Shown here: positions 24,548-27,013 of the stretch, one piece after another
Position numbering within the stretch: the stretch's first letter is position 1
How the letters are laid out: each line of letters starts with the position of its first letter
Assembly (NCBI GenBank): GCA_049509455.1
Contig: JBEKZX010000001.1
Span: 64,001 to 128,000, forward strand
From: Conexivisphaerales archaeon
Lineage (GTDB): Archaea; Thermoproteota; Nitrososphaeria; Conexivisphaerales; DTJL01
Direction: 5' to 3'
DNA length: 64,000 nucleotides
Made by a program: the position numbers and the translations under genes
The notes under the pieces: generated by a model
Database searches by the model: none
What the model was told of the DNA's origin: nothing
The model's input: the letters and a program-made list of their open reading frames with translations, nothing else

Positions 24548-25807
24548 ATGAGACAGCTTCGTTTCGTCGAGGTGCAGAGGGGGGAGCGTCGGAGGGAGGT
24601 GAAGTGTCCCGTCTGCCATGGCATGTCGTCGCTCTGTCGTGAGAATTACTGCCCCTACTTGGCGAAGCTCAAGGCCTTCCAGTCGGTCGCTCGCCTAGAG
24701 AGGATGGAGAGGGTCTTCGGCGCGTCGCCTCCCTCGGTCTTCGTCGGCGAATATGGATACCCGAAGGTGTTGGCCGGCCCCCTGGTGCCACCGCTTCCCC
24801 ACGAGGATACTGCACTCATGGACATGCCTGAGAGGTGGGTGGACAAGAGTTTCGAGGAGCTCCTGCGATACCGCCTGAGCCTAGTGAGGGGGAAGTACAC
24901 CATGGAGGTGGGCGAAGCGGTGAACCCTTCGCGGATCCTCTCTGCAACCCAGGAGGTTATAATGGCCTCCAGGCCCACCGACGTGGAAGCCGTCCTAGGG
25001 AAGAGGCCCGTGTTGACCGAGATCTTCAACTCCAGGAGTCCTCCCAATGGGCCCTCCGCACCGCTGATCAGCGTCAAGCTGGCGGAGAACCCCTCGGTCT
25101 CCGTTAGGGTTGAGAGGGTGGTGAGCGACGGCGACTTCAGGGCCGCCGAGGCGATACCCGAGCTCTTCTCCGGCGGCGTCAGGCAGAGCCAGATCACGAA
25201 GCTCCTCAGCATCGGCCTCCTCGGCGTCAAGAAGCGCAGGCGGCTGGTCCCCACCGAATGGAGCATCACAGCCGTCGACGATATTCTCGGAAAGGGGCTC
25301 ATCGACAAGGTGATGGACTTCTCCGAAGTGGACGGCTTCACCTTCTTCAGCCACCAAGCGCTGGGGAACGCCGTTTGCGTTGTCTTCCTTCCCTCTCCCT
25401 GGATGTTCGAAGGGCTGGAGGGTTGGGTGACCTCCGACCCCCGGGTCTATTCGGACCACGAGCTCTCCTCCGGTCGGAAGACCTACCCCACCAACCTCGC
25501 CGGGGCCTATCACGCCGCGAGGCTTCCTGTCTTGGAGTACCTGGCGGGACTGAGGAGGCAGGCCGGGGCCCTCGTCTTCATGGAGGTCCATCCTGAATGG
25601 ATCCCCCTCGGCGTCTGGCGCTTCCGCGAAATCGCCCGGAAGGCCTTGAGGCGGCCTCCCGTGGAGGCAGAAGACCTCAATCACGCTCTCCGGCTGGTCG
25701 CCGGAGAGCTCTCCATCCCCATCGAGAAATGGGTCCGTGCTTCCAGGGTAATCCCGTACTTCCTCCATCAGACCAAGCTCGAGGATTTCTTCCGCTCGAA
25801 GGGTTGA
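24548..25807 (+). CDS. Archaeal Nre-family DNA repair protein
   Basis: C..CHG...LC....CP, GASPPSVFVGEYGYPKV, RRLVPTEWSITAVD, AYHAARL, PLGVWRFRE, and a C-terminal PIP-box-like QTKLEDFF. Confidence 0.9.
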   Translation: MRQLRFVEVQRGERRREVKCPVCHGMSSLCRENYCPYLAKLKAFQSVARLERMERVFGASPPSVFVGEYGYPKVLAGPLVPPLPHEDTALMDMPERWVDKSFEELLRYRLSLVRGKYTMEVGEAVNPSRILSATQEVIMASRPTDVEAVLGKRPVLTEIFNSRSPPNGPSAPLISVKLAENPSVSVRVERVVSDGDFRAAEAIPELFSGGVRQSQITKLLSIGLLGVKKRRRLVPTEWSITAVDDILGKGLIDKVMDFSEVDGFTFFSHQALGNAVCVVFLPSPWMFEGLEGWVTSDPRVYSDHELSSGRKTYPTNLAGAYHAARLPVLEYLAGLRRQAGALVFMEVHPEWIPLGVWRFREIARKALRRPPVEAEDLNHALRLVAGELSIPIEKWVRASRVIPYFLHQTKLEDFFRSKG

Positions 25808-26259
25808 AAGGCTCATCTCGAGACGGGAGCCATATCCTGAGCGGTGAACATCCTGGGAATCCGCGGAAACCATCGTGCGGAGGCGCTCGACTCGCGCCTT
25901 CGGAATCAAGCCAATGAAGATGGGAGGCTTGTTGGCCTCTATGAGATGACCATCTCCGCGCCCTCCAAAGGAAACCTTCCCCAGTGCCTGGATGAACAGC
26001 CGGCTGATCAGCCTTCTTGTTCGTCGCCTGCCGTCCAACGCCCCAAGGTTCCTTGCGGTCGTCTCGACAGCCTTGCTGGCCTCCTCCCTCTTCGGCAGGT
26101 ACCCTTCGTGGACCACGTTCCATCTCATTGAGGACAGCTTCCTAAGCCCACCCACGTTCACTCCGGCGGCGTCACGATAGGCGCTCCTCCGCCTCCCTCA
26201 GGAAAGGGTCCTTGGGAGGCCAGAAGCTGGGGGCAGATGTTCGCATTTCCTGGGGGAGA

Positions 26260-26775
26260 TTAACGGAATCTCGTCTTCAGCGCGAGTGTAAGAGGTATCC
26301 CCAGCCCCACGCAAGCCACCAGCTCCCCGGCGAGGACCGATGCGAAGGAGACGACGGGGTCGGTAGAGTAGACCCACCCCAGGAGCACCACCCCTATGAG
26401 GAAAGCCACGATTACGCTGGCTTGAAGGGCTGCCACCACGAGCGATCCCAGAGACTGGTTTCTGCCTAACCAGTAGGCGAGCGAGCCCACCACGGCGTTG
26501 GCGATCGTCCCGATGAGTAGGTCGGGGAAGCCGTAGGGCGATATGAGGTTGGATATCATGACTCCCAGAGTCACGCCCAACACCCCCGCCACGCCCACCC
26601 TCCTGTTCCAGGGTATAGGCAGGAGCGCGTCGGTAATCCTCAACTGCAGGGGTCCAAAAGCGATGGAGGCGATGGCATACGTCCCTATTCCATACACGGC
26701 CGCAATGAGGGCAGTCTGGGCTAGCAGCTCAGAGCGAGGCTTGCGACGCCCTGCCATTACATTCTTAGTGTCCAC
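26260..26775 (-). CDS. QueT-family membrane transporter (ECF S-component-like)
   Basis: ALIAAVY....AIASIAFGPLQLRITDAL matches the QueT N-terminal pattern; G.TLG..ISNL.SPYG..D; about five TM segments. Confidence 0.8.
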   Translation of the reverse strand: MDTKNVMAGRRKPRSELLAQTALIAAVYGIGTYAIASIAFGPLQLRITDALLPIPWNRRVGVAGVLGVTLGVMISNLISPYGFPDLLIGTIANAVVGSLAYWLGRNQSLGSLVVAALQASVIVAFLIGVVLLGWVYSTDPVVSFASVLAGELVACVGLGIPLTLALKTRFR

Positions 26776-26867
26776 ACTCTATTCCTCCCAACCGGGGTTT
26801 CTTGAGCGGAACGGTGGGAGGCCCCACCACCCGCCAGAGCCGGTCATCCTCCGCCCATTATATTAAA
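26776..26867 (-). promoter_or_regulatory. TATA box and structured 5' leader with Shine-Dalgarno and anti-SD element (candidate riboswitch)
   Basis: Minus strand: TTTAATATAA (26867-26858), hairpin GCGG-GT-GGTGGG-GCCT-CCCACC-GTT-CCGC, and SD GGGAGG 8 nt before the GTG start. CCTCCCACCG can alternatively pair with CGGTTGGGAGG. Confidence 0.5.
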
Positions 26868-27013
26868 CTTGACTTACTCCGACCGTCGGCCCGCCTCCGA
26901 GTCGAGAAAACCTCTGCAAACCTGGAGCTCCGCGAGTTTTCACGAGTGATTAATCAAATGTTTTAAAAACACATAACTCCACATCCTCTCCGTAAAAGGA
27001 GTCCTGCGTCTCA

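Follow-up and report, generated by a model that had tools for sequence, protein, structure and literature searches.

A conserved leader RNA with two mutually exclusive folds before archaeal queT genes, a probable 7-deazaguanine riboswitch distinct from the described preQ1 classes

A 2024 review of the preQ1 riboswitches recognises three classes only and never mentions archaea (PMC11625349). PreQ1-I (RF00522; Thermoanaerobacter tengcongensis, Bacillus subtilis and E. coli; types 1-3) is a small H-type pseudoknot of ~34 nt at the 5' end of queT and que-operon mRNAs, in which a P1 helix of ~5 bp is followed by an A-rich linker and the 3' tail pairs into the P1 loop, burying nucleotides of the Shine-Dalgarno sequence (SD), so that a 7-deazaguanine exerts translational OFF control (PMC11625349). 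PreQ1-II (RF01054; the queT/COG4708 motif of Streptococcaceae and Lactobacillales) also lies before queT, is purely translational and holds the SD wholly within its pseudoknot helix (PMC11625349), and its fold is an HLout pseudoknot of four helices, one of which, the P4 hairpin, is embedded in the region of the 3' strand, with a pocket that contains U-A-U triples (PMC11602147). PreQ1-III (RF02680) is a bacterial HLout aptamer of ~100 nt whose expression platform is far from the pocket; its hairpin-loop anti-SD docks on an SD further downstream, and ligand changes the balance between docked and undocked molecules (PMC11625349). For archaea the list of established riboswitch classes is very short (TPP, fluoride and a few predicted from bacterial models), and no class is known to have originated there.

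The locus described here lies in a 64,000-nucleotide stretch of archaeal DNA (the window), for which it had been proposed from sequence alone that the leader of a minus-strand QueT-family gene is a translational switch of a possibly new class sensing a 7-deazaguanine or another transported metabolite. The leader letters quoted in that original prediction are exactly those of the minus strand at 26845-26773, and the gene behind them does belong to the QueT family and is the sole QueT of the genome (Table 1). Its GTG start at 26775 (-) is 8 nt past the GGGAGG of the SD, its upstream neighbour is a divergent alaS, and the intergenic region between them, 26776-27013, carries the promoters of both genes. 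A separate ORF of 388 aa (24995-26161, minus strand) lies between queT and nreA and overlaps nreA (24548-25807, plus strand) in antisense; it has no Pfam match.

Table 1. Features of the queT locus and its leader RNA (positions are those of the window)
Feature	Position	Strand	Remarks
queT	26260..26775	-	171 aa, GTG start, regulated gene; PF06177 QueT, E 1.7e-26
TATA box TTTAATAT of queT promoter	26860..26867	-	-33..-26 from the G of GCGGG
Whole conserved leader RNA motif	26784..26835	-	P1, internal loop, P2, linker, invariant AAACCCCGG, SD; 52 nt
P1 5' strand GGCGG	26831..26835	-	pairs with 26809-26805
Invariant GU of GCGGGUG, internal loop 5' side	26829..26830	-	exception L182 (GCGGGUA)
P2 5' strand GGUGGG (Fold A hairpin)	26823..26828	-	pairs with 26818-26813
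Anti-SD CCUCCCA, P2 loop and 3' strand, pseudoknot 5' strand (Fold B)	26815..26821	-	pairs with 26790-26784
P2 3' strand CCCACC	26813..26818	-	first nucleotides double as anti-SD
Invariant GUU, internal loop 3' side	26810..26812	-	GUUCCGC in 99/100 sequences; L195 has GAU
P1 3' strand CCGCU	26805..26809	-	pairs with P1 5' strand 26831-26835
Invariant single-stranded linker block AAACCCCGG	26792..26800	-	consensus AAAnCCCGG in all sequences
U plus Shine-Dalgarno GGGAGG, pseudoknot 3' strand	26784..26790	-	pairs with anti-SD 26821-26815

Taken alone, the window leader offers no evidence of structure beyond what GC-rich DNA can produce by chance, as the original prediction had cautioned: the minimum free energy of a 101-nt stretch is -33.8 kcal/mol against -33.3 +/- 3.6 kcal/mol for dinucleotide shuffles of it (z = -0.13). 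The significance of the motif comes instead from comparison. QueT orthologues were found in all four other genomes of the genus (QueT protein search of 40 related genomes), and a block of ~52 nt starting GCGGGUG is almost identical upstream of queT in 4/4 of these congeners while its flanks diverge; G039, a genome from a different family of the class, has two copies of this block, one copy per genome being otherwise the rule. A first covariance model, R1, was built from seven sequences (the genus plus both G039 copies), and strong matches (E < 1e-8) were found in 16/151 genomes of the class, including 5/8 in the window's own family and 9/10 in family f8; in f7, the large family of ammonia oxidisers, matches were marginal only (3/81 genomes, all at E > 0.005). 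With model R2 and 150 genomes sampled across the phylum, 27 genomes (26 and the window's own) have a match at E < 1e-8, one copy each, and these matches are free of the bias that a search pattern introduces. The window motif is a single copy in its genome and scores 89.4, 64.2 and 58.5 bits with models R1, R2 and R3, respectively.

An exact-pattern scan of species-representative genomes returned at least 120 stretches, mostly from Bathyarchaeia and also from Nitrososphaerota, Methanomethylicota, Asgard archaea (Promethearchaeota, Hodarchaeota) and Methanocella. In all, 109 distinct motif copies were gathered. Because the pattern that supplied about 80 of the sequences requires GCGGGTG, GTTCCGC and AAANCCCGG, their apparent invariance at these places is inflated; the 28 sequences found by the covariance model alone have the same core with slightly more variation. 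Related sequences are of course not independent events. We do not claim that the motif occurs in bacteria, as each of the three candidate bacterial copies is doubtful: one (L045, Terriglobia) matches the pattern and not the model, a second (L061, Solibacteraceae) is antisense inside a YdjC-like ORF and lacks the SD pairing, and the third (L108, record DASPPK010000097.1, "Candidatus Acidiferrales bacterium") is a perfect motif before queT whose bacterial origin is questionable. In the third the TATA is of archaeal type and at its usual distance, a family-B DNA polymerase gene lies alongside, and the contig may be an archaeal one mis-binned into a bacterial MAG.

Where do the transcripts that carry this motif begin? 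Over 97 distinct loci an AT-rich peak stands at -37..-28 before the G of GCGGG, and the A/T fraction climbs to 0.75-0.92 at -37..-29. The archaeal TATA box is generally centred ~26-27 nt upstream of the transcription start, and a peak at this fixed distance thus implies that transcripts start 1-6 nt before P1 and that the motif is the very 5' end of the mRNA. For the window queT, the standard spacing predicts a start at about 26837-26835. A leaderless transcript would have spoken against the original prediction, and the promoter geometry, which is inference from letters and not a mapped 5' end, argues that the transcript is likely leadered and begins just before P1.

Covariation supports three helices, which make up two sets of pairings. 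P1 (NGCGG/CCGCN', 5 bp) has four inner pairs that never vary and a closing pair that covaries (GC 71, AU 12, CG 5, GU 5, UA 3 and UG 2 of 100). RNAalifold, run on a MAFFT alignment, recovered P1 independently and P1 alone; it misses P2 because of a one-column offset between sequence types. P2 varies in length from 4 to 6 bp and covaries: in MAFFT alignment A5, columns 12:26 have GC 60, UA 10, GU 9, CG 2 and AU 1, and columns 13:25 have UA 62, GC 7, UG 2 and CG 1. Part of this column variation is the register offset between sequence types, and the clear cases of P2 covariation are the changes from U-A to C-G in L041, L031 and L033 and from U-A to A-U in L083. A different P2 register (G4-G8 with C18-C22), used for model R1, fits the G039a copy but fails in G008/L033 and was rejected; the register GGUGG/CCACC fits most sequences and covaries, and it was adopted. 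In the unfitted MAFFT alignment P1 and P2 together are paired in 96.8% of cells versus 89.4% when shuffled (0/500), and slid controls are 44-75% paired; these and the pairing statistics below rest on 88-100 distinct sequences.

The second set joins CCUCC(C), in the loop and 3' strand of P2, to the SD as an H-type pseudoknot over P1. The longest helix between the P2 loop region and the tail takes 43 distinct forms among 97 sequences, nearly all of them centred on the anti-SD/SD pairing, and all seven pseudoknot pairs have changes on both sides. That last count is partly a concerted one-base-pair indel between two sequence types and not many independent substitutions. Compensated variants include ACAUCUC/GAGAUGU (L088), UCUUCCA/UGGAAGG (L084), UUCCGAC/GUCGGAA (L190 and L191), CCACC/GGUGG (L192 and L193), GCCUCCU/AGGAGGU (the L097 group), UGCUUCCC/GGGAGGCA (L113) and UUGCCUCC/GGGGGCAA (L100). 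The SD and anti-SD make up much of the pseudoknot, and the SD is constrained anyway; the pairs that flank the SD core covary too (G-U, A-U, U-A, G-C), so conservation of the SD alone is not a sufficient explanation. P1 and the anti-SD/SD helix together are paired in 91.7% of cells versus 80.2% when shuffled (0/500), with slid controls 46-63% paired. Model R3 mis-registers the tails of window-type sequences by one column (~15 rows), and the 91.7% value is therefore an underestimate for those rows. The 5' G-run could also pair with the invariant tail (GGGU/ACCC), but neither side varies, so covariation says nothing about it.

The folds of the original prediction can be compared directly with these results. 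Its Fold A, the hairpin GGUGGG/CCCACC closed by GCGG/CCGC with the SD free, held and is supported by covariation. Its Fold B, which buries the SD by pairing CCUCCCA(CCG) with (CGG)U-UGGGAGG, held in its anti-SD/SD core; its ACCG/CGGU extension has no covariation support, the A-U pair of which is uncompensated in L083, L041, L031 and L025, and the CGG partner of which is absent in L194 and L195, although the extension may still form in many members. An optional outer helix, GACCGG/CCGGUU, failed on two counts, being not conserved even within the genus and having its GACCGG (26845-26840) upstream of the predicted transcription start, in line with the caveat that the start site might exclude this helix. 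The conservation and covariation of orthologous leaders, on which the prediction was to stand or fall, came out in its favour for both competing pairings, and the concern about chance pairing, true of the single sequence, is overcome by the comparison.

The 3' strand of P2 and the 5' strand of the pseudoknot share 2-3 nucleotides (columns 22-24 of alignment A7; C26818-C26816 in the window), and therefore the full P2, which leaves the SD free, and the full pseudoknot, which buries it, exclude each other. The expression platform overlaps the conserved structure, with alternative pairings that decide whether the SD is free. Within the shared region the L097 group has U in place of C; P2 accommodates this as a G-U pair, and the SD carries the matching G-to-A change, which suggests that selection acts on both pairings. 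Nearest-neighbour energies for the window RNA are -11.6 kcal/mol for P2, -5.4 for P1 and -18.7 for P1 and P2 together; the pseudoknot core is -9.7 kcal/mol, or -15.8 kcal/mol with the ACCG/CGGU extension. From these values we infer that P2 and the pseudoknot are close enough in energy for a ligand to tip the balance.

Three unpaired blocks, GCGGGUG(A), (C)CGUU and AAAnCCCGG, show almost no variation, and this holds for the 28 model-only sequences too; AAAcCCC persists in sequences that were found by the covariance model and not by the pattern. The exceptions are L182 (GUA), L195 (GAU), and L194 and L195 (tail AAACCCCAAAA). The last two (genomes G281 and G196) are divergent members before queT in which CCCGG reads CCCCAAAA, and they are useful natural variants for finding which invariant nucleotides matter. 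We infer, without binding data, that the AAACCCCGG block forms part of a ligand pocket.

The genes behind the motif are nearly uniform. An ORF starts behind the SD in 103 of the 109 distinct copies; of the other six, L050, L065, L093 and L109 are too close to the end of their stretch, and L031 and L057 have none within range. Ninety-four of the 103 ORFs encode QueT and four encode QueE-like radical-SAM/Fer4_12 proteins. For three of these four the best NCBIfam matches are QueE models, all under the curated cut-offs, and the fourth (L033) was outside the NCBIfam scan in its corrected frame. One QueE-like case (G008) belongs to the window's own family, and in another (L060) the QueE-like gene is followed by QueC, forming a queE-queC operon. 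The remaining five ORFs have no family: L022 is a pseudogene, L052, L178 and L179 probably reflect errors of frame or start, and L061 is a probable chance match. As far as gene context goes, then, the motif precedes both import and synthesis genes of one metabolite, the 7-deazaguanine preQ0, with the proviso that the substrate of archaeal QueT is not established. By analogy, such a distribution over transporter and biosynthesis genes in distant lineages is the typical pattern of a riboswitch, and the presence of the motif before preQ0 biosynthesis genes (queE, queE-queC) lends support to the riboswitch reading of the original prediction.

Two loci deserve separate mention. In the congener G001 (contig C26, ~110700-111130; L006/L014/L016) the queT behind an intact leader looks broken, its match being split into three pieces in different frames with TAG and TGA inside; this genome is only 59% complete, and sequencing error is a possible cause. 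The second motif copy of G039 (L009:660-900, the same as L041) is followed by a 25-codon ORF that resembles the N-terminus of QueT and then a stop, and two tandem QueT-like genes follow (L009 828-1286 and 1297-1890). The short ORF could be what remains of a truncated queT, or a leader peptide, or the result of a frameshift. In L031 (G057), the only other genome of the genus, motif and SD-proximal sequence are the same over the aligned part.

Which 7-deazaguanine might be sensed? The window genome encodes QueC and a TGT of archaeal type and size, and QueF was not found in it (95.5% complete). QueF (PF14489) was likewise above cut-off in 0/39 motif-bearing relatives, 28 of them >= 90% complete. 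As a control, the same search was above cut-off in 6/14 control genomes (7 ring), all six bacterial; PF14489 may nonetheless miss divergent QueF-like proteins. With no QueF found, free preQ1 is probably not made. Archaeal TGT inserts preQ0 at tRNA position 15, on the way to archaeosine. As QueC's end product and this enzyme's substrate, preQ0 is therefore the best candidate; on gene content, and without binding data, we regard it as likely that the ligand is preQ0 rather than preQ1.

Our main reading is that the queT leader belongs to an as yet undescribed structural class of riboswitches, exerts translational OFF control and senses a free 7-deazaguanine, most likely preQ0, and we give it a probability of about 0.7. 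It upholds the inference of the original prediction, with ligand binding and control of expression both remaining inferred. Under this reading the riboswitch would occupy about 26835 to 26784 (minus strand), where the queT mRNA begins. PreQ0 would bind a junction formed by the invariant unpaired nucleotides and favour the pseudoknot, which would bury the SD when the base is plentiful and keep ribosomes off queT (or off queE-queC in other genomes). The pocket and the direction of switching are assigned by analogy with the bacterial preQ1 riboswitches and not from ligand-binding or expression data.

Three other explanations must be weighed. The nearest keeps the architecture and changes the ligand, to preQ1, 7-carboxy-7-deazaguanine (the QueE product), guanine, queuine or an archaeosine-related base. 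In its favour, the gene context (queT, queE, queC) alone points to the pathway and cannot separate its intermediates, the known preQ1 riboswitches bind preQ0 too, with lower affinity (PMC11625349), and what archaeal QueT carries has not been settled. Against it, the QueF searches of the window genome and its relatives make the presence of preQ1 unlikely, and preQ0 is both what QueC produces and what archaeal TGT uses; we think such a ligand unlikely. Less likely still is a translational operator at which a protein, either of the archaeosine pathway or a dedicated regulator, controls access to the SD with no small molecule involved. Conserved hairpins with invariant loop nucleotides before a single regulon would fit this as well, and ligand binding is undemonstrated. 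However, the same sequence is kept from Nitrososphaerota and Bathyarchaeia to Methanomethylicota, Asgard archaea and Methanocella, the ~25 invariant unpaired or junction nucleotides with a pseudoknot are typical of metabolite aptamers and unusual for operators, and no adjoining regulator gene stood out in the loci whose neighbours were inspected (unsystematically).

The explanation that we rank last, below even the protein operator, is a leader that needs no ligand: a constitutive attenuator, an RNA thermometer whose SD becomes free on warming, or a 5' structure that stabilises the mRNA. SD/anti-SD hairpins do act as thermometers in bacteria, and the two states are near each other in predicted energy. 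A thermometer, however, has no need of invariant unpaired blocks such as GUUCCGC and AAACCCCGG, nor would one be found with a single metabolic regulon only, in lineages as different as those of mesophilic soil, of sediment and of hot springs. The preQ0 riboswitch remains the reading that we prefer.

A bolder form of it is that the leader represents a fourth class of 7-deazaguanine riboswitch, specific to archaea and natively selective for preQ0 over preQ1. We lean only slightly towards this, in the absence of binding data. If it is true, no earlier riboswitch would be linked to the metabolism of archaeosine as opposed to that of queuosine, and with its occurrence in the five groups named above this one would be among the most widespread archaeal riboswitches. 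Its existence would mean that metabolite-sensing RNAs control translation in archaea that use SD sequences, would give a handle on preQ0 salvage versus synthesis in uncultured Bathyarchaeia, Asgard archaea and non-ammonia-oxidising Nitrososphaerota, and would provide a 52-nt part for archaeal gene control. The known ways of recognising a 7-deazaguanine would rise from three to four, the new one being GC-rich and possibly the first in nature that is selective for preQ0. A synthetic RNA and ligands that can be bought would be enough for a direct test.

How, then, does the archaeal element stand beside the three described classes? No description of the motif was found in the literature searched. 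Covariance-model scans with Rfam 15 gave no family and no preQ1 match for 801 nt around the leader at E up to 10, no family for 14 diverse motif copies at E up to 5, and zero families for the whole window (1-64000) at the gathering threshold; none of the preQ1-I, -II or -III models matched in any of these scans. The judgement made by eye in the original prediction, that the leader matches none of these classes, thus held, and it is very likely that the leader RNA belongs to none of them. The likeness to preQ1-III is that of an anti-SD in a hairpin loop reaching a downstream SD, but the archaeal element is only 52 nt long and contains the SD within the motif. PreQ1-II shares the position before queT and an SD enclosed in a pseudoknot helix, but it is restricted to Bacillota, and neither its P4 hairpin nor its U-A-U triples are visible here: there is no conserved hairpin between the P1 3' strand and the SD in the archaeal motif, and the U-A-U triples that classes II and III have are missing from its GC-rich core (PMC11602147).

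PreQ1-I is similar in plan: P1, the A-rich start of the linker and the pairing of tail to loop are all present in the archaeal element, and translational OFF control, inferred in the archaeal case, would be common to both. The archaeal element is nevertheless longer, by the lengths given above, and has the P2 hairpin inserted in the P1 loop, so that the apical loop of this hairpin, and not a loop adjacent to P1, pairs with the SD. Its linker is 18-22 nt with the invariant AAACCCCGG, versus an A-tract (A-rich L3 of 6-8 nt) in preQ1-I. Its P2 and pseudoknot compete, it is archaeal and GC-rich, and its likely ligand is preQ0, not preQ1. In preQ1-I the specificity cytosine precedes the P1 3' strand, and in the archaeal RNA GUU-CCGC precedes or forms that strand, where a C might or might not read the ligand. 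In function, the archaeal leader is most like preQ1-I in its P1, linker and tail pairing, and most like preQ1-II in holding the SD in a pseudoknot before queT.
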